DNA of 64,000 nt from an uncultured archaeon (GCA_963817525.1 CAWFOU010000008.1:84084-148083), one strand, 5' to 3'; shown: positions 8,871 to 55,423, counted from the stretch's first letter. Numbers and translations are program-made. Notes: generated by a model from the letters alone, not told the origin.

Positions 8871-9221
8871 ATGGTGGATGAAGGCGCGGCGACGCCACCA
8901 GTCGAGCCAAAGCCGCGGAGAGAGCGCAAGCGGCTGGGCACTCGGGCCGTCGCCTCCGAAGTACGCGAGGCTGCGCTAGCCAAGAGTATGTCGCGGATTC
9001 TTCAAGGTTACCTGAATGGCAGAAGGCTGGTCACGGTCAAGATCAGGTTGGTCGAAGGGAAGAGCGTCGACGGCTTCCTGAAGATCACCGGCGAGAAGGG
9101 CGAGCGCCTTCTGGTGGATTTCAAGGCGACCGCGACGCCGCAGGGCCAGGTGTCTTCTCTTCAGGTAGGCGCGAGGAACATCCCTCTCGAGGCGGGCGCG
9201 AGCTCCAAGCGGAGTCGCTAG
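8871..9221 (+). CDS. Hypothetical basic protein
   Basis: ATG 8871 downstream of a GATATAC TATA-like element; typical codon usage; no family recognised. Confidence 0.55.
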   Translation: MVDEGAATPPVEPKPRRERKRLGTRAVASEVREAALAKSMSRILQGYLNGRRLVTVKIRLVEGKSVDGFLKITGEKGERLLVDFKATATPQGQVSSLQVGARNIPLEAGASSKRSR

Positions 9222-9231
9222 CTTCAGGCCA

Positions 9232-11247
9232 TTAGGCTCCGAGCAAGACTCGCACGTCGACCGCGAACGCACCCTCCGTGTTGACGATGACTGGGTTGAG
9301 GTCGATCTCTGTGATTTTGAGATCGACCGTCATCCTTGACAGCCGCTGCATCGCTGCAATAAGCGCGGCTTGGTCGTATCCCCTCTTCCTCGAGCTCAAG
9401 ATGTCGTAGACCCTGCTCTCTCGCAGCATCTCCTCGGCCTCGTCCGCTTCGATTGGACCGAGTCGATGGGATGGCCTCCCTATGGCCTCCACGTAGATGC
9501 CGCCGGCGGAGACAAGCACGGTCGGCCCGAAGCCAGGGTCGTTGAGCCCACCGAGCAAAACCTCCGCCCCCATAATTTGTTGCTGAACCATCACTCGCGG
9601 GCAGACTCTCGACAGGTCGGAGAACGCGCCCCTCGCCCGCTTGGAGTCGGAGACACTCATGACGACGCCGTTGAGCTCCGTCTTGTGGACCGGCTCGTCC
9701 GGCGAGATCTTCATCACGACCGGATATCCGAGTCTCTCCGCGAGGGCCTCGGCCTCGTCGGGGGAGGCGGCTGTCCCGTATCTTGGGACCTGAATCCCGT
9801 ACAGCTCAACTAGGAGCAGGCCGTCGCGGTCTGACAGGACGCGCTTCCCCGAGACGAGGGCCTCGGCGCCGTCCAGCGGGTGGGCTGTCCTGTCCTTCGT
9901 CCTCGCGGGGGGGCGCTTCACGAAGTGGCCTATCGCCCGGACGGCCTCCTCGGGGAACGTGAAGCTGGGGATTCCAGCGGCGTCGAGGACGTCCGCAGCC
10001 GCGTCCTCGTCCGTGCCCATCATGACGCCGACCAAGCTGGACCCCCTGAACCCGACCACCGTCCTGGCGACCTCGACGCAGCTCAGGAGCGGCATGGACT
10101 GCATCAGGACCAGCTTCGTGCAGTCGATTCCCTGGACTTCTGCCAAGGCGGCCCTGTATCTTTCCGCGTTGGCGTCCCCCGACAGGTCCAGCGGGTTCCT
10201 GGGCCGGATCTGGGGAGGCAGGAGGGCGGAGAGCCTCGCGACGGTGGTCTCCGGGAGCGCAGCGAGCCTCAAGGAGCGGCGCTCTATCTCGTCCGTAGCG
10301 ATGACGCCGTGACCTCCAGAGTTGGTTACCACGAGGAGGTCAGGCTTTATCACCTCGTCGCCGGTGAGGAGCCTGGCTAGGTCGAGCGAGTCCTCGAGGC
10401 TCTCCGCCAGCATCCCGCCCACGGCGTTGACCGCAGCCCTGAAGACGTCCGCCGAGCCGGCGAGGCTGCCGGTGTGGGTCCTGGCCGCCTCCGACCCCCT
10501 CTTCCCGAGCCCTCCCTTTAGGAAGATGACGGGCTTCCGCCTGGTGGCGTTCGGGACGAGGTCCAGGAACCTCTGCCCGTCGCTGACGCTCTCGAGGTAG
10601 ACGAAGACTACCCCGGTGCCCGGGTCGCCAGCCAGGAAGTCCAGGACCTCCGCCTCCGAGACGTCGGCCTGGTTGCCGAGGCTCACGAAGTAGCTTATGC
10701 CGGTCCTGCTCCTCTGCGCCCACTCGAGCATGTACATCCCGAGGCCTCCGCTCTGGGCAACCAGCGCGACTTTGCCCCGAGGGACCTCGGAGAACGCGAA
10801 GGTCCCGTTGAAGGCGGGGGTCACTAGCCCTAGCGTGTTCGGCCCGAAGACCCTGATCCCAGCCTGCCCAGCGATCTTCTTCACCTCTTGCTCGAGCTCG
10901 GCGCCGTGCTCGTCCACCTCCCTGAATCCGGAGGTGATCACGACGGCACCCTTGACGCCCTTCTTGGCAGCGTCCAGCATGACGCCCGGGACGGCGTCTC
11001 TGGGGACCACGACTATCGCCAGGTCCACATCCTCCTCGATTGCCGTGAGCGAGCCGTAGGCCCTCCGCCCCTCGACGTCCATCGCCGACGAGTTGACCGG
11101 GTACAGATTCCCGCTGAAGGTCGCGAGGAGGTTCCTGAAGACGACGTTCCCGATCTTCTCCTTCCTGTGCGAGGCGCCCACGACGGCGATGCTCCTCGGG
11201 TCGAAGAGCCCCCCGAGAGAGCCGTTCTTTCTCGAATCGTCGGTCAA
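9232..11247 (-). CDS. ADP-forming acyl-CoA synthetase (acetate-CoA ligase), fused alpha/beta
   Basis: FDPRSIAVVGAS CoA-binding start, GPNTLG, QSGG, SLGNQAD, RTHTGSLAG phospho-His, NPLDL, GYPVVMKI..HKTE, EIDLNP ATP-grasp. Confidence 0.93.
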   Translation of the reverse strand: MTDDSRKNGSLGGLFDPRSIAVVGASHRKEKIGNVVFRNLLATFSGNLYPVNSSAMDVEGRRAYGSLTAIEEDVDLAIVVVPRDAVPGVMLDAAKKGVKGAVVITSGFREVDEHGAELEQEVKKIAGQAGIRVFGPNTLGLVTPAFNGTFAFSEVPRGKVALVAQSGGLGMYMLEWAQRSRTGISYFVSLGNQADVSEAEVLDFLAGDPGTGVVFVYLESVSDGQRFLDLVPNATRRKPVIFLKGGLGKRGSEAARTHTGSLAGSADVFRAAVNAVGGMLAESLEDSLDLARLLTGDEVIKPDLLVVTNSGGHGVIATDEIERRSLRLAALPETTVARLSALLPPQIRPRNPLDLSGDANAERYRAALAEVQGIDCTKLVLMQSMPLLSCVEVARTVVGFRGSSLVGVMMGTDEDAAADVLDAAGIPSFTFPEEAVRAIGHFVKRPPARTKDRTAHPLDGAEALVSGKRVLSDRDGLLLVELYGIQVPRYGTAASPDEAEALAERLGYPVVMKISPDEPVHKTELNGVVMSVSDSKRARGAFSDLSRVCPRVMVQQQIMGAEVLLGGLNDPGFGPTVLVSAGGIYVEAIGRPSHRLGPIEADEAEEMLRESRVYDILSSRKRGYDQAALIAAMQRLSRMTVDLKITEIDLNPVIVNTEGAFAVDVRVLLGA

Positions 11248-45837: not shown

Positions 45838-47298
45838 TCAGGCCGTGGACAGGCTCTTCACGTAGGCGGCCTCGTCGAGCTTGGAGAAGCCCAGGTCGAG
45901 CGACTGCCCGGGGCGCATGAGCTCCAGCACCGCCTTCCCTGCTCCCCTCTGCCTCCAGTAGGCGTCCCCGAACCGGGAGACGAGCGAGTTCCTCAGCTCC
46001 AAGGCCCGGACGGCCGCCACGAGGTAGGAGGGGGAGTAGAGGATGTATTCTGGCATCACGTGGTGGAGCTTCCAGTACGCCCCGGGATACCTGATGCCCA
46101 GGAAGCGCTCGGTCAGGTCGGCGTAGAGGCCGTCGAGCGACGAAAAGTCCAGGGACTCCCGCCAGTACCTGAGCTTCAGGGTGGAGTTGGCCGCGTAGAA
46201 GGTCGCGAAGTAGAGGCTGTTGAACCTGTAGCGCTCCAGGATGTCCCCTGCAGCGTCCTCTGGGAGGCCCAGCTCAGAGGTCAGGAAGAGCCTCTCGTGC
46301 ATGAGCCCCTCGAAGAAGATGGAGAATATCTCGGCGACCCCGTTGGCGACGCCATACCTGTCGTAGAAGCTCGCGCGGGGGTCGATGGAGGAGAAGTGGA
46401 TGGCGTGCCCGAACTCGTGGAAGACCGCCGAGAAGTCCTCGAAGGGGTTCGCCTTCCGGTATGAGATCCTCACGTCGGACGGTATCTTGATACCCGAGCA
46501 GAAGGCGGAGGCGTTCTTGCCCTTGCGGTCGGCGGCGTCGACCTCGATCTTCGAAGCGTCCAGGCCTATCCTCTTCATCGTCCTGACAATCTTTGGGATG
46601 GGCCTCTGCTTCGTGGGGAGATCCTTCGCGTACCTCTTGAAGACCCTGTTCCTGAAGAAGTAAAAGTCGTCGTAATACTCCGCAGGTCTCCCGATTATCT
46701 CCGAGGAGTATTTCTCGAGCGACTCCCCGAAGGGAGACCTGGCGAGCTCCCCGAGGCGCTGGACCATCGAGATCAGCCTTTCGTAGGAGACGCCCTCGTG
46801 CTCGAGGTAGGCCGCGAGAGGGTCGGTCCCGAAGTTCGCCAGGAGCTCCTTGTACGTCTCGAACCTCCTCTGGATTATCGGTGCCAGGACGGAAGACTTT
46901 GCGATGAAGTCGTCGAAGACCTTCTTCCGGGCCGACGAGTCGTCCGAGCTTGCCGCGAACTGCCTCCAAGACCCCCAGTTTACGGGGGCGCCACCGAACT
47001 TAAACTCGTGCGAGACCACCTTCGTGGCCCTGGCCTCGTGCAGCTGCAGGAGCTGCCTGTAGGTCCCCGCCGCCCCGATGGAGGCGACGGACATGAGGAA
47101 CAGTCCGCGCGAGGCGTCCCTGACGCGTCCGAAGGTCTTCACGTAGCGCGAGTAGTGGGTCTTGGAACTGCCCTCGAGCGAGGCGAGCTTCTTCTTGTCG
47201 AACTTCAGCCCGACGAGTTGCTTGAAGTAGAGCAGGTTCTTCTTTGTCTCGAGGGACTCGGCCTCCTTGGTCCAGGACGCTAGCTTAGAGGAGGGCAT
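45838..47298 (-). CDS. Gluzincin (M3-like) metallopeptidase
   Basis: HEFGH motif, downstream AEIFS third ligand, AFC..I.IP.DV. Confidence 0.75.
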   Translation of the reverse strand: MPSSKLASWTKEAESLETKKNLLYFKQLVGLKFDKKKLASLEGSSKTHYSRYVKTFGRVRDASRGLFLMSVASIGAAGTYRQLLQLHEARATKVVSHEFKFGGAPVNWGSWRQFAASSDDSSARKKVFDDFIAKSSVLAPIIQRRFETYKELLANFGTDPLAAYLEHEGVSYERLISMVQRLGELARSPFGESLEKYSSEIIGRPAEYYDDFYFFRNRVFKRYAKDLPTKQRPIPKIVRTMKRIGLDASKIEVDAADRKGKNASAFCSGIKIPSDVRISYRKANPFEDFSAVFHEFGHAIHFSSIDPRASFYDRYGVANGVAEIFSIFFEGLMHERLFLTSELGLPEDAAGDILERYRFNSLYFATFYAANSTLKLRYWRESLDFSSLDGLYADLTERFLGIRYPGAYWKLHHVMPEYILYSPSYLVAAVRALELRNSLVSRFGDAYWRQRGAGKAVLELMRPGQSLDLGFSKLDEAAYVKSLSTA

Positions 47299-47370
47299 CG
47301 CAGAGACGGGTGGGGTCGGGGCGGATAATATCCTTCTCGCGAGAGCCGTGAAAGCGGCAGCATCGTCATC

Positions 47371-48198
47371 CTAGGCGACGAGCCGGTTCAGGCCCCATTT
47401 GGTCCTGACGCTCTCCTCCAGCCTGTAGAAGAGCAGTCTGTCGGCCGCGAGGCCTATCGAGAATATCACCATCATCGAGACGATCACCTCACTCATCTTC
47501 AGGAACTGGCTGCCGTCGTAGAGGATACCGCCTAGCCCGATGGCGCCCATGAGCATCTCCGCGCCTATGAGGGCATGCCAGGCGAACGACCACGCCTGCC
47601 TCACCCCGGCGATGAGGGACGGCATGGCCGCGGGCATCATCACGCTCCCGAAGAGCGCGAGGTTTCCGGTCCCCATGTTCTTCGCGGCCCTGATGTATAT
47701 CGAGGGGGTGTTCCTCAGACCGCTGTACGTCGACATCATAATCGAGAAGACCGAACTCAGCACCACGACGAAGAGTATCGCGGCGTTGTCGAGACCGATT
47801 ATGATTATGGCGAAGGGGACCCAGGCGAGGCTGGGGAACGACTGCAGTCCGAGGCTGAAGGAGTTCATCATCCTTCCGAAGCGCTTGAAGTAGACCATCA
47901 AGACGCCCGCCCCGAGCCCCAGCACCAGGGTCACCCCAAAGTCCACCACGATGCGCTCCAGCGTGTCGGCGACGCCTGCTTGTAGGGTCCCGGCCTTTTC
48001 CAGGACGAGGAACTCGGCCCAGGTCGCGCTCGGCGACGGGAAGAGGTACGGCGGCCAGATCTTCAGCCAGAAGACGACCTGCCACGCGACGACGAAGACC
48101 ACGAGGCCTACGACGATGTCGAGGACAGTGGTCAGCGCCTGCCTCCTCTCGCGCCTGGACCTGCTCTCAGTGGCTGAGATTGTCTTCGCTTGTTGCAA
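47371..48198 (-). CDS. NitT/TauT/SsuC-family ABC permease
   Basis: LFPSP, LQSFPSLAWVP, YIRAAKNMG, WHALIGAEM...GLG. Confidence 0.93.
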   Translation of the reverse strand: MQQAKTISATESRSRRERRQALTTVLDIVVGLVVFVVAWQVVFWLKIWPPYLFPSPSATWAEFLVLEKAGTLQAGVADTLERIVVDFGVTLVLGLGAGVLMVYFKRFGRMMNSFSLGLQSFPSLAWVPFAIIIIGLDNAAILFVVVLSSVFSIMMSTYSGLRNTPSIYIRAAKNMGTGNLALFGSVMMPAAMPSLIAGVRQAWSFAWHALIGAEMLMGAIGLGGILYDGSQFLKMSEVIVSMMVIFSIGLAADRLLFYRLEESVRTKWGLNRLVA

Positions 48199-49031
48199 AC
48201 TTGTCTTCCTCCCTCAGGTTCTTCAATATGGCCGCTATCGTGCCGGTCAGGGCGGGGTCCTCGACGTCCCTGGGCCGCCTCAGGTCGACGAGGTACTGCT
48301 CTTTGATCCTGGCTGGCCCGCGCGAAAGCAGGATCACCCTGTCGCCGAGCGACGCGGCCTCCCTCACGTCGTGGGTGACGAAGAGTATCGTCTTCCCGGT
48401 CCTCTGGTGGATCTCCTGGAGCTGCAGCTGGAGGGTCTCGCGCGTCTTGACGTCGAGCGCGCCGAACGGCTCGTCCATAAGCAGTATCCTCGGGTTCATC
48501 GCCAGCGCCCTCGCTATAGCGACCCTCTGCTTCATCCCGCCGGAGAGCTGGTGGGTGAACGACTTTGCGAACTTTGTTAGGCCGACCATCTCGATGTACT
48601 GGGACACGGTTTTGTTCCTCTCCTCCTTCGGCACGTCGTGTTGCTTCAGGCCGAAGGCCACGTTGTCCTCGACGTTGAGCCACGGGAAGAGCGCGTCCTC
48701 CTGAAAGATCATCACAATGTCCGTGCCTGACCCCGCCACCCTGTGACCGCTCACCACCACGTCGCCCCCGTCGTAGCCATCGAGCCCCGCGATGATGTTC
48801 AGGAGGGTGCTCTTGCCGGAGCCCGAGGGGCCGATGATGGTAACGAACTCTCCCTCGCTGACGTCGAATGTAACGCCATCGAGGACCACCAGGTCTTCGA
48901 GCCCCGCCCCGCCGTGGTTGGGGTAGACCTTTCTGAGGTTCTGGACCTGGAGGATTCTCTCGGTCCTTGCGAGGATGGGAGAGTATGCTCCCCTTTCGCT
49001 GGAGTCGCCCGAGGGCTTCGTGTCTGGCCAC
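48167..49031 (-). CDS. NitT/TauT/SsuB-family ABC ATPase; GTG 49031 is one base out of frame with the body
   Basis: GPSGSGKS, LFPWL.V..NV, LSGGMKQR, MDEPF, FVTHD; ILQVQNLRKVY strand lies in-frame upstream of track start 48889. Confidence 0.88.
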
Positions 49032-49037
49032 TCGCCC

Positions 49038-50243
49038 CTAGCCTGTTACCTGCGGGAGGCCGTACTCCTCCAAGATGGAGTTCAGGATGGTGAGGTTGTA
49101 GAGCCCCGCCAGGCTCTGGGCGGTCGGCGCGACCGTCCCCAAGTCGTTCAAGGCGTACGCGTTCTGCGCCTGCTGCAAGACCGAGGCCTCGAGGGGGCTG
49201 TCGGTGAAGCTCAGCCTGGTCATCGCCGTCTGTATTATGGGGAGCCCTACCGCCCCTCCCGTGAGGTTCCCGAGGACGTCGTTGAGCTCGACGGCCGCCT
49301 GCTGCGGGTTGCTCTGAATCCACTGCGTCTCGTAGAGGTTGGCTGCGACTATCTCCTTGACCACGTCGGGGTGGGAGTGCAAGAAGGCGGTGCTCACCAC
49401 GAGCTCGGCGGTCGAGAAGCCGTTCGGCCAAAGGCTAGCCTCGTTGAGGAAGATGTGCGCGTCCGCGTCTGCGACGAGGATGGCGCCCCACGGCTCGGGG
49501 ACCCACGCCCCGTCGATCTGCCCCTTCTCCATCAGGGCCACGATGTTGGCGTCCGATGTGTCCTCCACCGTGACGTTGCCCGACGGGGCTATGCCGTACC
49601 CGTTCGCGATCAGGTAGTGGCGGAGCGCAATGTCCTGGGTATTCCCGACTCCGGGCGCCGCGAAGGTCTTGCCTCCCAGGTCCTTGACTGAAGTTATGCC
49701 GGAGTCATTGCTGACCACGAAGACCGCTCCGCCGTTCGCGACTCCCGAGACCACCTGTAGCGCCGTGCCGTTCGAGGCGAGGTAGGCGTTCACCGCTGGG
49801 CTAGGCCCGACATAGGCGATGTCGATCTTGCCGGCGAGCAGTGCGGTCATCTCGGGCGAGCCCGAGGTGAAGATGGTCGTGTGGATGGTCGTGGAAGGCC
49901 CGACGAACTTCTGGAAGTCTCCGTCGTTCAGGCCTATCACCGCGGGCGCATGGTTGAGGTTCGCGAAGTAGCCGATGGTGACCACCGAAGCCGAGTTGTT
50001 GGTCGGAGGGTTTGCGGGTAGCGTGAGCGTCTGCGAGACCGTGCTTGTAGAGCTGGCGGTCGATGAGGAGCCTGAGGAAGCATAGGAGGACGACAGGGTA
50101 GAGGCAAGCGTCCCCGTACTCGTCGCCGCCGAGGTGAGAGTCGAGACCCCGTAGCCTGCGGCTACCACGAGCGCCACGACCACTATCACGGCGACCACAT
50201 ACTTGCCGGCGATTCCCGACCTTGTCTGGACGTTTATCTTCAT
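49038..50243 (-). CDS. SsuA-like (sulfonate/sulfate/oxyanion) ABC substrate-binding protein, TM-anchored
   Basis: N-terminal TM, S/T linker, IGYFANLNHAPA, ID.AYVGP.PA, P..GNTQD.ALR, AWVPEPW. Confidence 0.9.
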   Translation of the reverse strand: MKINVQTRSGIAGKYVVAVIVVVALVVAAGYGVSTLTSAATSTGTLASTLSSSYASSGSSSTASSTSTVSQTLTLPANPPTNNSASVVTIGYFANLNHAPAVIGLNDGDFQKFVGPSTTIHTTIFTSGSPEMTALLAGKIDIAYVGPSPAVNAYLASNGTALQVVSGVANGGAVFVVSNDSGITSVKDLGGKTFAAPGVGNTQDIALRHYLIANGYGIAPSGNVTVEDTSDANIVALMEKGQIDGAWVPEPWGAILVADADAHIFLNEASLWPNGFSTAELVVSTAFLHSHPDVVKEIVAANLYETQWIQSNPQQAAVELNDVLGNLTGGAVGLPIIQTAMTRLSFTDSPLEASVLQQAQNAYALNDLGTVAPTAQSLAGLYNLTILNSILEEYGLPQVTG

Positions 50244-50262
50244 TTGTTGACGCGGGGAGGCG

Positions 50263-50386
50263 GTAATTATATGTAATTAACCTTTCATTATATATAATTA
50301 CGATGCGACTAAGGTGCGAGGGTCGAACGTTCTCTCTGGAACCCCTGCGGCCGGCGACCCGAACGGATAATTACAAGTAATTATCC
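50263..50386. promoter_or_regulatory. Divergent promoter with three tandem RTAATTAY-N2-RTAATTAY boxes
   Basis: GTAATTAT-AT-GTAATTAA (50263-50280), TTCATTAT-AT-ATAATTAC (50284-50301), GGATAATTAC-AA-GTAATTATCC perfect palindrome (50365-50386). Confidence 0.7.
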
Positions 50387-50403
50387 AGTCATCGGGATAA
50401 AGC

Positions 50404-50622
50404 GTGACGAAATACACCTCCGTCTCGATCCCCCTGACCCTCCACAAGAGGCTGGAAAAGCTGATCTCCAAGAAGACCGGCTTCAAGTCGGTCTCGGACT
50501 ACGTGACCTACGTCCTGCGGGAGGTCGTCGCGATGCACGAGATGAAAGAAGTGCCGGAGCCCTTCACGAGTACCGACTTGGACGAGATCAAGAAGCGGCT
50601 GCAGGCCCTCGGATACCTTTAG
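50404..50622 (+). CDS. CopG/MetJ-like ribbon-helix-helix regulator
   Basis: KYTSVSIP..L...L..LI..TGF.SVSDYV.YVLRE; C-terminal IKKRLQALGYL. Confidence 0.9.
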   Translation: MTKYTSVSIPLTLHKRLEKLISKKTGFKSVSDYVTYVLREVVAMHEMKEVPEPFTSTDLDEIKKRLQALGYL

Positions 50623-50631
50623 GCGAGCGCA

Positions 50632-51777
50632 ATGGCTAACGCGCCCCACGGCGGGAATCTGGTCCAGATCAAGCAGGCTTCCATTGGCTCCCCATCCCTC
50701 AAGGGTTTCAAAGAGAGCCAGAGGCTGAGAGTGAGCAAGGAGACCGCGACCGTGGTCGCGAACATCGCGAACGGGATATTCAGCCCGCTCGAGGGGTTCA
50801 TGACGGAGAACGACTACCTAAACGTCCTGGAGCACATGCGTCTCGAGGGGGACGTCCCTTGGACGATACCCATCCTGCTCCTCGGCCCAGGCAACAGCGG
50901 GTTCGGCTCCGGCGACGATATCCTGCTCGTCGACGAGGCGGGCCGCCCGGTCGCCATCATGGAGTACGAGGGGAGCTTCGGGATATCCAGGAATGAGTAC
51001 GCGAGGAAGGTCTTCGGGACGGAGGACAAGGCCCATCCCGGGGTCGCGAAGACCTTCGAGGGGAGCAACCGGGCCATCGCCGGGAAGCTGAAGGTCGCGG
51101 TGAAGCCGGACCACGGCGAGTACGCGGACTACACGCTCACGCCGAAGGAGACGCGGATACTATTCGCGGAGAAGGGATGGGACACGGTAGTAGCGTTCCA
51201 GACCCGCAACGCCCCCCACATCAACCACGAATACCTCCAGAAGAGCGCCCTCGCGCTCGTGGACGGGCTCTTCATCAACCCGGTCCTAGGGAAGAAGAAG
51301 GCGGGCGACTTCAAGGACGAGGTGATCCTCGCGACCTACAAGGAATTGCTGGCCAACTACTACCCCAAGAGCTCGGTGGTGATGAGCGTCCTGCACTACG
51401 AGATGCAGTACGCAGGCCCCAAGGAAGCGATAATGCACGCGATAATGCGGAAGAACTTCGGCTGCACGCACATCATCATTGGCCGCGACCACGCGGGGGT
51501 GGGGAACTACTACGGGCCGTACGCCGCGCAGGAGATCTTCAAGGAGTTCCCCGACCTCGGGATAACTCCGCTGTTCTTCAAGGAGTTCTACTACTGCAAG
51601 AGGTGCGCTGGGATCGCGAGCGAGAAGACGTGCCCCCACGGGGAGGAGGACAAGCTCAGCTTCAGCGGCACCAAGCTGCGCAAGATGTTCTCCGAGGGCG
51701 AGGTGCCTCCCAAGGAGTTCATGAGGCCAGAGGTCGCGCAGGCGATACTGAAGTTCGACCGACCGTTCGTGGAATGA
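50632..51777 (+). CDS. sat: Sulfate adenylyltransferase (ATP sulfurylase)
   Basis: PHGG.L, G.FSPLEGFM, W.IPI.L, HPGV, FQTRNAPH..HE, YAGP.EA..HA..RKNFGCTH.IIGRDHAGVG, SGT.LR. Confidence 0.97.
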   Translation: MANAPHGGNLVQIKQASIGSPSLKGFKESQRLRVSKETATVVANIANGIFSPLEGFMTENDYLNVLEHMRLEGDVPWTIPILLLGPGNSGFGSGDDILLVDEAGRPVAIMEYEGSFGISRNEYARKVFGTEDKAHPGVAKTFEGSNRAIAGKLKVAVKPDHGEYADYTLTPKETRILFAEKGWDTVVAFQTRNAPHINHEYLQKSALALVDGLFINPVLGKKKAGDFKDEVILATYKELLANYYPKSSVVMSVLHYEMQYAGPKEAIMHAIMRKNFGCTHIIIGRDHAGVGNYYGPYAAQEIFKEFPDLGITPLFFKEFYYCKRCAGIASEKTCPHGEEDKLSFSGTKLRKMFSEGEVPPKEFMRPEVAQAILKFDRPFVE

Positions 51778-51786
51778 AATGACCTC

Positions 51787-51812
51787 CACGCCCGTGCGGC
51801 TTGCACGGCGTG
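51787..51812. terminator. GC hairpin after sat (terminator or processing element)
   Basis: CACGCC(C)GTGC-GGCTT-GCACGGCGTG, followed by a separate AT-rich TATA-like region at about 51846-51875. Confidence 0.4.
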
Positions 51813-51948
51813 CAAATTATCATCGGTCATAATTCTGGGCCCTCACTAATAATAAATGACTAAGCATTAAATATCGTAAACGGAGGCCCGAATTCGAGAC
51901 TTGTTAGAGGCCCGCGAGAGCCTCAAGTCGATTTGAGAGCGATTCACA

Positions 51949-53361
51949 ATGTCAAAGAAAGTGGCAGTCCTCGGCCTAGACTCCGTGCCGCCGGAGATCC
52001 TGTTTGACAAGCTCATAGACAAGCTCCCCAACTTCAGGAATATCTACCGCGAGGGCCTCCACGGGAGGCTGAGGACGTGCGACCCGCCGATAACGGTCCC
52101 GGCCTGGATGGTGATGATGACCGGGAAGAACCCGGGCGAGCTCGGGATATACGGCTTCAAACACAGGAGGGGCTACTCGTACAGCGACGGCTACATAGTG
52201 ACCTCCAACAATGTGACGGCGAAGACGGTCTGGGAGGTCCTGTCGGACGCGGGGCGCAAGTCGGTCGTCATAGGCGTCCCTCCCGCGTACCCAGTCAAGC
52301 AGGTCGCCAATGCGACCACAGTGTCGTGCTTCCTCACACCATCCGCAGAGAGGCCTTTCACCAACCCCGACGCGCTGAAGGCGGAGGTGGTCAAGGCGGC
52401 GGGCGGGGAATACATCTTCGACGTGACGTTCAGGACAGAGAACAGGGCGGACGTCAAGAAGGAGCTCTTCGAGATGACGGAGAAGAGGTTCGACGTCGCG
52501 GAGTACCTGGCGAAGAGCAGGCCGTGGGACTACTTCATGCTCCACGAGATCGGCTTCGACCGCCTCCATCACGCGTTCTGGAAGTTCTTCGACCCGAAGC
52601 ATCCCAAGTACGTGAAGGGGAACGAGTTCGAGGGTATCGACCTCGAGTACTACTCGATGGTGGACAGGCGCATCGGGGCGCTGCTCCCGCTGTTAGGCGA
52701 GGACTGCACGACGTTCATCGTCTCCGACCACGGGTCGAAGGCGATGCAGGGAGGGTTCTGCATCAACCAGTGGCTCGAGCGGGAGGGGTATCTGAAGTTC
52801 AAGAAGAAGCCCGAGAAGCCCACCGAGCTGGACAAGGCGGAGATAGACTGGGGGAAGACCAAGGCGTGGGGGTGGGGCGGGTACTATGCCCGCATCTTCT
52901 TCAACGTGAAGGGGAGGGAGGCGACGGGCGTGATAGACCAGTCGCAGCTCGAGGCGGAGAAGAAGAAGCTCACAGAGAAGATATTGAAGATAAAGGACCA
53001 CACGGGCAGGACGATGAGGAACTCGGTGAGCGAGCCGGCGAAGCTCTACGGCACGGCGATCGGAGACAAGCCCGACCTGATGGTGTACTTCGACGACCTC
53101 GACTGGAGGTCCGCGGGGACTGTCGGGCACGACTCGCTGTATCTCTTCGAGAACGACACGGGGCCTGACGACTCGGTGCACTCGATGGACGGGGTGTTCA
53201 TGATGCGCGTCCCTGGCCGAGACCTGAAGGGGCGAGAGGTGAAGGGAGCTAGGGTGGAGGAAATGGCCCCGACCATACTCTCCATTCTCGGCATAGACCC
53301 CAAGGGAGCCGGCTTTGGAGGAAAGGCCATCGCGGCCGCGCTCGAAGGGGAGGGGCGATGA
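51949..53361 (+). CDS. Alkaline-phosphatase-superfamily protein (COG3379, type I phosphodiesterase-like)
   Basis: VLGLD, PPITVPAW..M.TGKNPG..GIYGF, DRLHH.FW, IVSDHG, H...GVF; ATGA overlap with cysC. Confidence 0.9.
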   Translation: MSKKVAVLGLDSVPPEILFDKLIDKLPNFRNIYREGLHGRLRTCDPPITVPAWMVMMTGKNPGELGIYGFKHRRGYSYSDGYIVTSNNVTAKTVWEVLSDAGRKSVVIGVPPAYPVKQVANATTVSCFLTPSAERPFTNPDALKAEVVKAAGGEYIFDVTFRTENRADVKKELFEMTEKRFDVAEYLAKSRPWDYFMLHEIGFDRLHHAFWKFFDPKHPKYVKGNEFEGIDLEYYSMVDRRIGALLPLLGEDCTTFIVSDHGSKAMQGGFCINQWLEREGYLKFKKKPEKPTELDKAEIDWGKTKAWGWGGYYARIFFNVKGREATGVIDQSQLEAEKKKLTEKILKIKDHTGRTMRNSVSEPAKLYGTAIGDKPDLMVYFDDLDWRSAGTVGHDSLYLFENDTGPDDSVHSMDGVFMMRVPGRDLKGREVKGARVEEMAPTILSILGIDPKGAGFGGKAIAAALEGEGR

Positions 53362-53900
53362 GCTGGATGTCGAGCGAAGGGTTCACGATCTGGATGACCG
53401 GGCTCCCGGGCTCGGGCAAGTCGACGCTCGCGGGTGTCCTGAAGACCAAGCTCGAGGCACAGGGGAGGCGCGTCGAGATACTGGACGGCGACGAGGTGAG
53501 GAAGGGCCTTTCGCGCGACCTCGGGCTGTCGAGGGAGCACAGGGAGGAGCACGCGTGGAGGGTCTCCTTCGTCTCGAAGCTCCTCTCGAGGAACGGAGTA
53601 ATCTCGATTGTCGCGCTGATCTCTCCATACAAGACCTCGCGGGATAGCGCCAGGCAGATGATAGGGCCGGAGAGGTTCGTCGAGGTCTACGTCAAGGCAT
53701 CCCTGCAGGTGTGCGAGATGAGGGACCCCAAGGGCCTCTACGCAAAAGCGAGGCGGGGCGAGATCACGAACATGACAGGGATCCAGGACCCCTACGAGGA
53801 GCCGACGGACGCTGACATCGTGGTCGAGACCGAGAGAGGGACCCCCGACACGAGCGCCGAGTTCATAATCCAAGAGCTCCGCAGGCGCCGCAAGCTCTAA
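53358..53900 (+). CDS. cysC: Adenylyl-sulfate kinase
   Basis: W.TGLPGSGKST, LDGD.VR..LS.DLG, ISPY, F.EVYV, RDPKGLY, TGI.DPYE.P. Confidence 0.97.
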   Translation: MSWMSSEGFTIWMTGLPGSGKSTLAGVLKTKLEAQGRRVEILDGDEVRKGLSRDLGLSREHREEHAWRVSFVSKLLSRNGVISIVALISPYKTSRDSARQMIGPERFVEVYVKASLQVCEMRDPKGLYAKARRGEITNMTGIQDPYEEPTDADIVVETERGTPDTSAEFIIQELRRRRKL

Positions 53901-53922
53901 CGCGCGGGCTCGGACGGGCGCT

Positions 53923-54423
53923 CTAGAGGTAGCTCGAGTAGCGGCTGCGGACCAGCTTACGCATCTCGTCAGATAGCCTGCTGTCTACGCTCTGCTGCTC
54001 CCTGGTCAGCGACGCCGCCGGTCTCCCGCGGCTCGCGAACACGACAGGCCCCTGGATGTAGCTACCCGGTCCGGTGGGGGCGACGGGGTTCACGGTGCTA
54101 AGGTAGGCCAGGAGAGCGCTCATCCCTTCCTGGGAGTCGTCGGTGACGGCCGCTGCTTGTCGCGGGTCGACCCTCCTAAAGCCGAAGGAAAGTGGCGAGG
54201 GCGGGGGCCTGGCGTCATGGACCGTCCTCGCGCCGAGGATGAACGGCGAGGGCTTGAAGATCGTGTCCAGCTTCAGGTGCCAGGATTCGTCGGGGCTCCC
54301 GACATGGGCGTCGAAGAAGCCGTCCCTGGAGGAGGGGGAGATGGTGAAGCTCCAGCCGCGCGGGTCATTGGAGTAGCGCTGAAGGAGCGTCCGGTAGAGC
54401 GCGTCGCCTCGAAGTATCTCCAT
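53923..54423 (-). CDS. Hypothetical protein
   Basis: ATG 54423 about 25-30 nt after minus-strand TTTATTA; no family recognised. Confidence 0.65.
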   Translation of the reverse strand: MEILRGDALYRTLLQRYSNDPRGWSFTISPSSRDGFFDAHVGSPDESWHLKLDTIFKPSPFILGARTVHDARPPPSPLSFGFRRVDPRQAAAVTDDSQEGMSALLAYLSTVNPVAPTGPGSYIQGPVVFASRGRPAASLTREQQSVDSRLSDEMRKLVRSRYSSYL

Positions 54424-54478
54424 CGAAGGACGCGAGGCGCGTCGAGGGTAATAAAGGTGGCACGGCGGCCGCGCTGTT

Positions 54479-55423
54479 TCAGCCGGCCCCTGAAAGGGTG
54501 TCATGGACCACGGCAGCCAGCGCCTTGATGAAGAGGGGCGACGTGTTCAGGGACTTTGTCCGGACGAACTCGATTCCGGCCTTCTCGGCCTGCTCCCTCG
54601 CCCCGATGTCGATGTCGTAGAGCACCTCCAGGTGGTCGGCTAAGAACTGGACCGGCGCGATGACGACGTGGCTGTAGCCCCCCTCTCGGAGCCTCGGCAT
54701 CATGTCGGCGAAGTCAGGCTTTAGCCACTCCTCCGGGGTGTGGCCGGCGCTCTGGTAGCAGAACATCCAGCGCCCCTCGGGTAGCCTCGCCAGCTCGGCG
54801 ACCGCGGCGGCGGTCTCCTCCAACTGGTGGATGTACCCAGGCTCCCCTTCCACCACCCGCTTGGGCATGCTGTGCGCGGTCAGGAGGACGGGGACCCCCT
54901 CCCTCATGGAGGGCGGCAGGGCGTCCAGCGCCTCGTTCACCCTCTCCGCCAGGGCCTCTAGGAAGTAAGGCTGGAGGTGCCAGTCCTCCGCGACCTTCAG
55001 GGAGAGCCCGTCGCGGTGGAGGGAGGCCACGGCCGAGCTCACGTCTTGCAGGTATCCCCCCATGATGATCGGCGAGTACTGGGGAGACATTATGACCCCG
55101 ACCACGCGCCCGGACTCGGGCGCGGACTCTCGGACGACGTCGGCGATGAGAGGGGGCGAGAACCGCATACCCGCCACCGCGCGATACGAGTTCCCGTCCT
55201 TTAGCCCCGTCAGCTCCTTCTCCAGCGCGGCGGCCTGCTCGTTGGTGATGCGCAGCAGGGGAGAGCCGCCTATCAGCTTGTAGCGGCGGCGGAACTCCGC
55301 GACCAGCGCCTCGTCCGGTTCGCGCCCGCCCCGGACCCTGCGGAGGTACGCCGGTATGTCGTCTGGGCTGGCGGGGGAGCCGTAGGTCATCAGCAAGACG
55401 CAGACCTCTCCGCCGTCGGTCAG
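54479..55423 (-). CDS. hemH: Ferrochelatase (coproporphyrin-type CpfC/HemH), probable CTG start
   Basis: LLMTYGSP, Y..IGGSPL, PQYS, TAHSMP, YQSAG....WL.P, FLADHLE.LYD.D, LN; CTG 55423 overlaps hemE stop (CTGA) with GGAGGT 7 nt upstream. Confidence 0.93.
   Translation of the reverse strand: MTDGGEVCVLLMTYGSPASPDDIPAYLRRVRGGREPDEALVAEFRRRYKLIGGSPLLRITNEQAAALEKELTGLKDGNSYRAVAGMRFSPPLIADVVRESAPESGRVVGVIMSPQYSPIIMGGYLQDVSSAVASLHRDGLSLKVAEDWHLQPYFLEALAERVNEALDALPPSMREGVPVLLTAHSMPKRVVEGEPGYIHQLEETAAAVAELARLPEGRWMFCYQSAGHTPEEWLKPDFADMMPRLREGGYSHVVIAPVQFLADHLEVLYDIDIGAREQAEKAGIEFVRTKSLNTSPLFIKALAAVVHDTLSGAG

Follow-up and report, generated by a model that had tools for sequence, protein, structure and literature searches.

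This work concerns a sulfate-activation cassette in an uncultured archaeon, in which a gene of the alkaline phosphatase (AlkP) superfamily sits between sat, encoding ATP sulfurylase, and cysC, encoding adenosine 5'-phosphosulfate (APS) kinase. The window, meaning the whole 64,000-nt stretch of DNA analysed here, is contig 8, 84084-148083, of a 2.82 Mb genome in 15 contigs that is 95% complete with 8.75% contamination. GC content is ~62%, and the host is a mesophilic soil member of the Nitrososphaerota. The nearest relatives of the window's AlkP protein come from metagenome genomes labelled Nitrososphaerales or Thaumarchaeota. Counted from the first letter of the window, the features of the locus are as follows.

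47371-48198, minus strand: ATP-binding cassette (ABC) transporter permease, SsuC/TauC/SaoP-like (BPD_transp_1, PF00528, E 7.4e-18)
48167-48889, minus strand: ABC transporter ATPase (PF00005, E 3.9e-35)
49038-50243, minus strand: SsuA/NMT1-family substrate-binding protein (TIGR01728, PF13379)
50264-50279: operator-like site 1, TAATTA-N4-TAATTA, in the divergent intergenic region
50368-50383: operator-like site 2, TAATTA-N4-TAATTA, 20 nt 5' of the small gene
50404-50622, plus strand: 72-aa CopG/ribbon-helix-helix (RHH)-like small protein, probable operon autoregulator
50632-51777, plus strand: ATP sulfurylase, Sat (PF01747, E 3.8e-93; PUA_2, E 4.3e-37; NF003166, 477.6 bits, cut-off 387)
51949-53361, plus strand: 470-aa AlkP protein of the nucleotide pyrophosphatase/phosphodiesterase (NPP) type, COG3379-type (PF01663, E 3.5e-42, 145.7 bits, cut-off 23)
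53358-53900, plus strand: APS kinase, CysC (PF01583, E 1.2e-62; TIGR00455, 222.2 bits)

Family searches found at their places all of the genes that the sequence-only reading of this DNA had listed. The overlap that it had noted between the COG3379 gene and cysC was also seen: the AlkP stop and the cysC start share an ATGA, which couples translation of the two genes. The window was also found to contain neither cysH nor genes for a sulfite reductase or a P-loop sulfotransferase, as first noted, and the locus can be described as a self-contained sulfate-activation module. The cassette cysC is the single APS-kinase match in the whole genome.

The gene order sat-AlkP-cysC recurs far beyond chance. 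We collected 80 related loci from Nitrososphaerota, Bathyarchaeia, Asgard lineages, Methanomethylicota, Aminicenantes, Bacillota, Chloroflexota, Actinomycetota and others, and searched them with tblastn. The cysC gene lies directly downstream of the AlkP gene in 68 of the 80 loci and sat directly upstream in 54. Fifty-two loci have both neighbours, 70 have at least one and 10 have neither. In a quick tree of 77 rows, from which L009 and L055 (in-frame stop in the match) and L042 (too short) were left out, the linked state is spread throughout, with the unlinked rows confined to a few subclades, namely Rubrobacter with Thermoleophilia, Dehalococcoidia, and singles. Protein fusions repeat the pattern. 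Of the homologues longer than 823 aa, the best 120 comprise 119 Sat-AlkP fusions and a single GlmM-AlkP protein. Rarer fusions include CysC-AlkP, a two-member cluster, as well as AlkP-pyruvate kinase (PK) barrel-Sat, AlkP-PK, AlkP-GT2 (a glycosyltransferase family) and NTP_transferase-AlkP. These last four and GlmM-AlkP are single-member clusters, one of them marked partial; therefore, the GT2, GlmM, NTP_transferase and PK-barrel fusions are counted as adjacency at most. The proposed tie of this COG3379 clade to sat and cysC across phyla is thus borne out.

Several individual loci show the gene in other company. In Desulfotomaculum copahuensis, AlkP and CysC are fused, and the fusion gene lies in a polysaccharide locus along with a methyltransferase, a sulfatase-like gene with Thr at the catalytic position (Thr-type, see below), a Wzx flippase, a nucleotidyltransferase and a sugar dehydratase. 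Two f3-family genomes (L092 on G130 C6 and L093 on G116 C1) have an AlkP orthologue that is not beside sat, with cysC 1-10 kb away; the neighbours of this orthologue are a Wzx-type flippase and a Fe-ADH_2 gene resembling glycerol-1-phosphate dehydrogenase. Paenibacillus campi (L066, 671-11227) has the string nonribosomal peptide synthetase, amino-acid kinase, M20 peptidase, AlkP, CysC, a second PF01663 protein of 657 aa, and a major facilitator superfamily exporter. Together these genes may direct the biosynthesis of a sulfated product; no ordinary sulfotransferase was found in the stretch seen.

The AlphaFold model of the AlkP protein has a mean confidence (pLDDT) of 96.8. Among solved structures, Foldseek places it closest to ENPP1 and Xanthomonas NPP, with a probability of 1.0, TM scores of 0.56-0.59 and 13-15% identity. 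A phmmer search of the single sequence against PDB sequences gave no match at E <= 1; with the family profile, NPP and phosphonoacetate hydrolase are matched at E ~1e-8. The metal and nucleophile set, D11, T49, D204, H208, D260, H261 and H411, is conserved across 72 aligned members. T49 is the Thr of PPITVPAW, is T or S in 66 of the 72 family members, and aligns with the Thr of the LTFPNH stretch in Xanthomonas NPP, which we take to be the nucleophile of that enzyme; by this alignment, T49 is the putative nucleophile here. The protein matches Pfam PF01663 alone, with no sulfotransferase family model matched. It has no formylglycine motif C/S-x-P-x-R as in the PF00884 sulfatases, Thr49 standing at that place, and no match to PF00459 or PF01368/PF02272, the models of the CysQ/Inositol_P and DHH phosphatases that act on 3'-phosphoadenosine 5'-phosphate (pAp). 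With a PF01663 score over the cut-off, the two-metal ligands and Thr, and the NPP fold, it belongs to the NPP branch. A protein atlas returned generic "alkaline phosphatase family" clusters.

The window protein thus resembles Xanthomonas NPP and ENPP1/3 (PF01663) in fold, in the putative Thr nucleophile and in the six conserved metal ligands. It differs from them in ~90 extra residues, in clade-specific basic residues, in the tie of its clade to sat and cysC, and in location. The protein has no signal peptide, and strand 1, which bears D11, lies at the very N-terminus; therefore, it is cytoplasmic, not secreted. The clade-conserved basic residues are at positions 71, 73, 264, 315 and 323 and are unmatched in three glycan-linked paralogues of the same genome. 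The clade is 45-55% identical between bacteria and archaea.

The sequence-only reading had called the system undescribed, a claim that does not survive the literature. The locus is a thaumarchaeal (Nitrososphaerota) copy of a published archaeal sulfate-activation cassette. Jin et al. (2021) described a cluster of copG, ATP sulfurylase, a DHH pAp phosphatase (pApase), a type I phosphodiesterase/NPP and APS kinase in Pyrococcus yayanosii (pych_17520-17560), Thermococcus onnurineus NA1 and other archaea (PMC8268124). In that paper PYCH_17550, the "type I phosphodiesterase/nucleotide pyrophosphatase", is "speculated" to degrade inorganic pyrophosphate (PPi), and its passages on P. yayanosii place a TauE gene beside the cluster and identify no sulfotransferase or sulfite-to-sulphide enzyme (PMC8268124). 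The T. onnurineus genes are given as TON_1704, APS kinase; TON_1705, pyrophosphatase; TON_1706, PAP phosphatase; and TON_1707, ATP sulfurylase (PMC4463584). TON_1705 is quoted elsewhere as an inorganic pyrophosphatase with a pH optimum of 9.5, a kcat of 2.1 s-1 and a Km of 18.8 uM (PMC9653972, Table 1).

The window shares with these clusters the ATP sulfurylase, the PF01663-named gene and the APS kinase in the same order, headed by a small gene of weak RHH (copG-like) similarity: sat and cysC lie on the same strand over 50632-53900 with the PF01663 gene between them, as in 52 of the 80 loci, and the conserved 72-aa gene occupies the place of copG. The P. yayanosii cluster and the window are also alike in that no sulfotransferase or reductive genes were identified for either, and its TauE neighbour recurs here, as TauE genes flank the cassette in 13 of the 80 loci. 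One related locus, L055, has the order sat-DHH-AlkP-cysC, and its AlkP protein is 51% identical to the window protein. This order and the TauE neighbours identify the window as another copy of the described cluster. A protein search from L055 returned metagenome proteins alone among its best 120 matches, with no named Thermococcales protein. There are differences from the published clusters. No DHH pApase lies between 50404 and 53900; the genome's DHHA1 protein is on contig 1 (587555-588499) and is 34% identical to the operon-linked DHHA1. An SsuABC-like importer stands at the place of TauE, and the host is a mesophilic, high-GC member of the Nitrososphaerota.

What, then, does the third enzyme do? 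We judge it probable, if only somewhat, that the locus is a supply cassette for 3'-phosphoadenosine 5'-phosphosulfate (PAPS) with a dedicated PPi hydrolase. Sat would produce APS and PPi; the NPP-type enzyme would split the PPi at its two-metal Thr49 site, pulling the unfavourable Sat reaction forward; and CysC would turn APS into PAPS. The RHH-like protein would bind both TAATTA-N4-TAATTA sites and so control the operon and probably the neighbouring ABC importer. The PAPS would be spent on sulfation, not sulphide formation, by an enzyme encoded elsewhere, for which the three COG3379 paralogues near glycan genes are candidates by analogy with Agl30/Agl31 (see below). The pyrophosphatase (PPase) activity comes from the literature on another organism, and we infer the orthology, the role of the regulator and the fate of PAPS.

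The fusions support a PPase, as the Sat-AlkP proteins join a PPi producer to the proposed PPi remover. In stramenopiles and haptophytes, ATP sulfurylase (or PAPS synthase) is fused to a family I inorganic pyrophosphatase, so that producer and remover are joined in both cases, the partner being of family I there and of the alkaline phosphatase fold here. Furthermore, AlkP, a pyruvate-kinase barrel and Sat are joined in single proteins, matching the enzyme set that is used for PAPS synthesis in vitro. The identity between bacterial and archaeal members fits one small, invariant substrate. The clade-specific basic residues, the gene order of L055, the TauE neighbours and the operator are further points in favour of this interpretation.

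We searched for recognised users of PAPS, first in this genome. PAPS_reduct (PF01507) had no match in the 95%-complete assembly, with the control positive in 14 of 14 genomes; the search did not extend to PAPS reductases of the Apr-like kind. The sat-cysC pair is thus not explained by a cysH route, in agreement with the sequence-only reading. Sulfotransfer_1, _2 and _3 (PF00685, PF13469 and PF03567) had no match in the whole genome. Sulfotransfer_4 and Stf0 likewise had no match, with controls that were positive nowhere, so these two negatives prove little. A NIR_SIR gene lies with sirohaem genes on a separate contig (contig 7, 16700-18520), next to genes for HemD, a sirohaem synthase-like protein and a uroporphyrin methylase. 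Its protein appears split into frames of 404 aa and 144 aa (L007:7710-8924 and 9082-9516). The genome also carries an Inositol_P protein.

We then sampled the class Nitrososphaeria (151 genomes). The AlkP orthologue is present in 18 of them, including none of the 80 genomes of family f2, which we take to be the ammonia oxidisers, and 13 of the 14 of family f6; cysC is present in 74 of the 80 and 13 of the 14, respectively. PAPS_reduct occurs in all 80 f2 genomes, a result that holds without the unpublished genome G132, and is strong in just 5 of the 18 AlkP carriers. NIR_SIR was found in none of 9 f5 genomes and none of 14 f6 genomes, the two families that hold 14 of the 18 carriers. Of the 18 carriers, 3 have a clear match to Sulfotransfer_1 or _3, a further 2 have weak or broken ones, and Sulfotransfer_2 was found in none. 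In one carrier genome, an ordinary sulfotransferase gene lies 6 kb from the orthologue. In three genomes a cysC copy lies directly beside a Sulfotransfer_1/_3 gene (G140 C38:49831-51220; G074 C1:133558-135065; G027 C1:1147069-1149551), and several f6 genomes have two or three cysC copies.

Among 81 Bathyarchaeia genomes, 15 carry the AlkP orthologue, at 46-54% identity. A high-scoring type of cysC is present in all 15 carriers (in one as contig-end fragments) and in just 3 genomes without the orthologue. PAPS_reduct was found in 5 of the 15 carriers and an ordinary sulfotransferase in 1, leaving 10 with neither PAPS_reduct nor Sulfotransfer_1/_3. Only 3 Bathyarchaeia genomes have an ordinary sulfotransferase, and 2 of them belong to the 3 that are cysC-positive and AlkP-negative. 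The APS_kinase-family gene of most Bathyarchaeia scores low (E 1e-27 to 1e-33) and differs from the high-scoring cysC linked to AlkP, and a middle APS_kinase class (~1e-40) goes with a sister AlkP clade at 37-39% identity. Five distant AlkP carriers gave no match to Sulfotransfer_1 or Sulfotransfer_3 (0/5 each) and a strong PAPS_reduct match in two; D. copahuensis has no PAPS_reduct match. Overall, a recognised PAPS user was not found with PAPS_reduct and Sulfotransfer_1/_3 in about 20 of the 33 carriers sampled in the two archaeal classes (~60%), counts taken from incomplete assemblies of related, and thus not independent, genomes and from a scan that did not extend to every sulfotransferase family.

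Several points weigh against a dedicated PPi hydrolase. This genome already has a family I PPase. AlkP tracks cysC (68 of 80) more than sat (54 of 80), and a PPase would serve Sat, not CysC. Furthermore, AlkP is coupled or fused to cysC without an adjacent sat in 12 loci with room for it, including that of D. copahuensis. The cysC-bearing relatives among the presumed ammonia oxidisers (74 of 80) are all without AlkP, so AlkP is not needed for PAPS synthesis as such. Alkaline-phosphatase-fold enzymes are promiscuous, and we infer that the window protein is the orthologue of PYCH_17550 and TON_1705 from the Pfam family name and gene position. In the table that gives the kcat of TON_1705, a family I PPase is listed with a value ~500-fold higher (PMC9653972). 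Under this interpretation no PAPS consumer is identified.

The last point leads to the alternative that survives best, in which the NPP-type enzyme is itself the PAPS consumer, a non-canonical sulfotransferase, with the PPase activity of TON_1705 a side activity. We consider this unlikely, though worth setting out. Sulfuryl would be passed, either via Thr49 or without that intermediate, to an acceptor in the cytoplasm, for example a sugar nucleotide or a lipid-linked glycan. The surveys above speak for it: PAPS_reduct is strong and Sulfotransfer_1/_3 clear in only a minority of the Nitrososphaeria carriers, NIR_SIR is at 0 of 23 in the two families that hold most of them, two-thirds of the Bathyarchaeia carriers have neither class of user, and the distant carriers gave no match to Sulfotransfer_1 or _3. 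So do the ordinary sulfotransferases in two of the three cysC-positive, AlkP-negative Bathyarchaeia, the AlkP-CysC fusion beside a Wzx flippase in D. copahuensis, which has no PAPS_reduct match, and the orthologues that adjoin Wzx flippases in G130 and G116. There is also precedent in the superfamily. Agl30 and Agl31 of Halobacterium salinarum are alkaline-phosphatase-superfamily sulfotransferases, as shown by deletion and by expression in Haloferax (PMC11980604).

However, the biochemical evidence on record, a PPase activity measured for an enzyme at the same cluster position, does not favour a sulfotransferase. Sat, not CysC, is the dominant fusion partner, and strong cross-phylum conservation fits poorly with varied acceptors. 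One genome has an ordinary sulfotransferase 6 kb from its orthologue. The complementarity in Bathyarchaeia comes down to 3 genomes, with a hypergeometric value of ~0.06 for related genomes that are not independent, and the assemblies are incomplete, with not all sulfotransferase families scanned. In its broadest form, the NPP-fold enzyme, tied to sat and cysC in lineages as far apart as Asgard archaea and Firmicutes, would be more than a pyrophosphatase: a sulfotransferase, or a different PAPS-spending group transferase, acting on a common cytoplasmic glycan precursor; we rate this general form as a tentative and improbable one.

Other alkaline-phosphatase-fold proteins could also spend the PAPS. 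The genome has three COG3379/PF01663 paralogues, 22-25% identical, on contig 1 at 367710-369266, 651565-653199 and 901839-903344 (L088, L089 and L090). Their neighbours are a Wzx-type flippase, a PMT-like GT-C protein and a GT4 glycosyltransferase, and we regard the three as candidate glycan-modifying, possibly sulfating, enzymes. Among PF00884 genes that flank the cassette in related loci, 12 of 13 encode Thr at the position of the formylglycine Cys and His at that of the Arg (P-W-T-x-P-S-H); these are in L021, L026 (8297-9646), L029, L030, L034, L043, L045, L058, L059, L063, L073 and L076. The copy in L067 alone keeps C-x-P-S-R. One Thr-type neighbour matches S1 sulfatases at E 1e-16, and going by the motif, the Thr-type proteins may be transferases rather than sulfatases. 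Agl30/Agl31 share the superfamily with the window AlkP protein, lie in a glycosylation cluster, and include one cytosolic member (PMC11980604). They differ in being sulfatase-like, not NPP-like; the term "PAPS" does not occur in the main text of that paper, and its passages on the two genes mention no sat-cysC cassette (PMC11980604). On this comparison, Agl30/Agl31 would model the paralogues and the sulfatase-like neighbours rather than the cassette's own gene.

With the Thr-type genes of 12 loci and the three paralogues as possible consumers, the elimination argument for AlkP as the sulfotransferase is removed. We have therefore demoted the idea of AlkP as sulfotransferase "by elimination" to a rival, also in view of the published PPase. 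The published PPase, Sat as the commonest fusion partner and the existence of other AlkP-fold sulfotransferases together lower the case for AlkP as the consumer.

A third possibility is that the AlkP protein is a hydrolase for nucleotide clean-up or control, either a pAp 3'-phosphatase in the stead of CysQ, as the sequence-only reading had offered, or a PAPS/APS phosphodiesterase that limits the pool. Its fold and active site are those of nucleotide pyrophosphatases/phosphodiesterases, and NPP enzymes split phosphoanhydride and phosphosulfate bonds. Any PAPS user also needs pAp removal (PMC10322725). Nevertheless, a pAp-removing role would duplicate what is already there: a DHH/DHHA1 pApase-type gene shares the AlkP operon in 3 of the 80 loci (L049, L067 and L055), the published clusters bear a separate, characterised pApase (PMC8268124, PMC4463584), and this genome has its own DHHA1 and Inositol_P proteins. 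The CysQ replacement is weakened by these genes. Breaking down APS or PAPS next to their own synthetic enzymes would be futile, and we find the whole proposal very unlikely.

Equally hard to credit is a role of the cassette in assimilatory sulfate reduction, in which an unrecognised reductase of PAPS or APS would deliver sulfite to the NIR_SIR protein of contig 7. That gene does lie beside sirohaem-synthesis genes, and the literature leans this way: the published clusters carry the title "assimilatory sulfate reduction" (PMC8268124), and papers on Bathyarchaeota and Helarchaeota class sat and cysC as assimilatory (PMC7110647, 10.1101/527697). Methanothermococcus thermolithotrophicus, which has a non-canonical PAPS reductase, is a near parallel, with ATP sulfurylase, APS kinase and a DHH-family PAP phosphatase in one genomic environment (PMC10322725). 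It differs in that its pathway continues to PAPS reductase and sulfite reductase, and "alkaline phosphatase" has 0 occurrences in that paper (PMC10322725). In the present genome PAPS_reduct was not found (the Apr-like reductase lying outside the search), the NIR_SIR frame looks split, and the families with most AlkP carriers have no NIR_SIR match. A thiol-sulfotransferase route to sulfite was rejected as a general explanation on the same NIR_SIR result.

We return to the cassette as a regulated PAPS supply with a PPi hydrolase, and to its proposed regulator. The small gene is found upstream in 51 of the 80 related loci, and its equivalent is named copG in the published cluster (PMC8268124). 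The 72-aa protein has no match in Pfam or NCBIfam and is highly conserved, with invariant P10, S29, Y33, R65, L66, L69, G70 and Y71. Its predicted structure has an extended N-terminus followed by helices at 11-23, 30-46 and 56-68. A fold search with this model gave the RHH repressors omega, NikR, CdbA and Arc as top matches, none significant (E 3-6), and the family profile has a weak match to the NikR RHH domain (E 0.03). A complex prediction of the AlkP protein with the 72-aa protein scored 0.31 against a mark of 0.32, without controls, and is given no weight.

The 160-nt divergent intergenic region (50244-50403) contains two inverted repeats built on TAATTA-N4-TAATTA. Site 1 sits within an 18-nt inverted repeat and site 2 in a perfect 10-nt inverted repeat, GGATAATTAC/GTAATTATCC. 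The motif has 2 matches in total in the 64-kb window, both in this intergenic region, with 0.00 expected by chance. Across the 80 related loci (859,038 nt), it has 27 matches in 15 loci that range from Nitrososphaerota to Asgard archaea, and 24 of the 27 lie at most 250 nt 5' of the small gene, a target space of ~1.5% of the sequence. Such enrichment of a palindromic operator supports DNA binding by the small protein and, at the level of sequence, its role as an autoregulating DNA-binding protein. The conserved TAATTA-N4-TAATTA operator is new in this analysis.

The divergent importer, which the sequence-only reading had supplying sulfate, is of less certain specificity. Its permease has SaoP, SsuC, NtrB and TauC as best NCBIfam matches, all under their cut-offs, and its ATPase has SaoA, taurine and nitrate types, also under cut-off. 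The binding protein scores 174.3 bits to TIGR01728 (SsuA_fam, cut-off 163.5) and E 7.4e-33 to PF13379, placing it in a family of sulfonate/taurine/nitrate type, and it has an N-terminal membrane anchor with a Ser/Thr-rich linker. The importer adjoins the cassette in just 7 of the 80 related loci. Unrelated genes lie to either side of the locus: an amino-acid permease, an amidohydrolase and an M3/M32-like peptidase upstream, and a ferrochelatase, URO-D, a class-III aminotransferase and a chlorite-dismutase-family gene downstream. Directly 3' of cysC is a 193-aa open frame (53923-54504, minus strand) without a Pfam match, which may not be a gene. The single Rfam match over 47000-54600, ASdes, reached 24.1 bits against a threshold of 40 and was dismissed as chance.

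The sat and cysC genes of many uncultured archaea and bacteria, among them soil Nitrososphaerota, Bathyarchaeia, Asgard archaea, Aminicenantes and Anaerolineae, are usually filed under "assimilatory sulfate reduction". In this locus and its relatives, the two genes travel together with a conserved third one, as a regulated cassette for PAPS supply. The reductive steps were not found in most sampled carriers; therefore, the cassette more likely serves the sulfation of cell components than sulfur assimilation. Its NPP-type enzyme has one modest in-vitro activity on record. If AlkP did prove to be the PAPS spender, this would explain the ~60% of sampled carriers in which neither a PAPS reductase nor an ordinary sulfotransferase was found. 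The conserved operator offers a handle on the signal that switches sulfation on.

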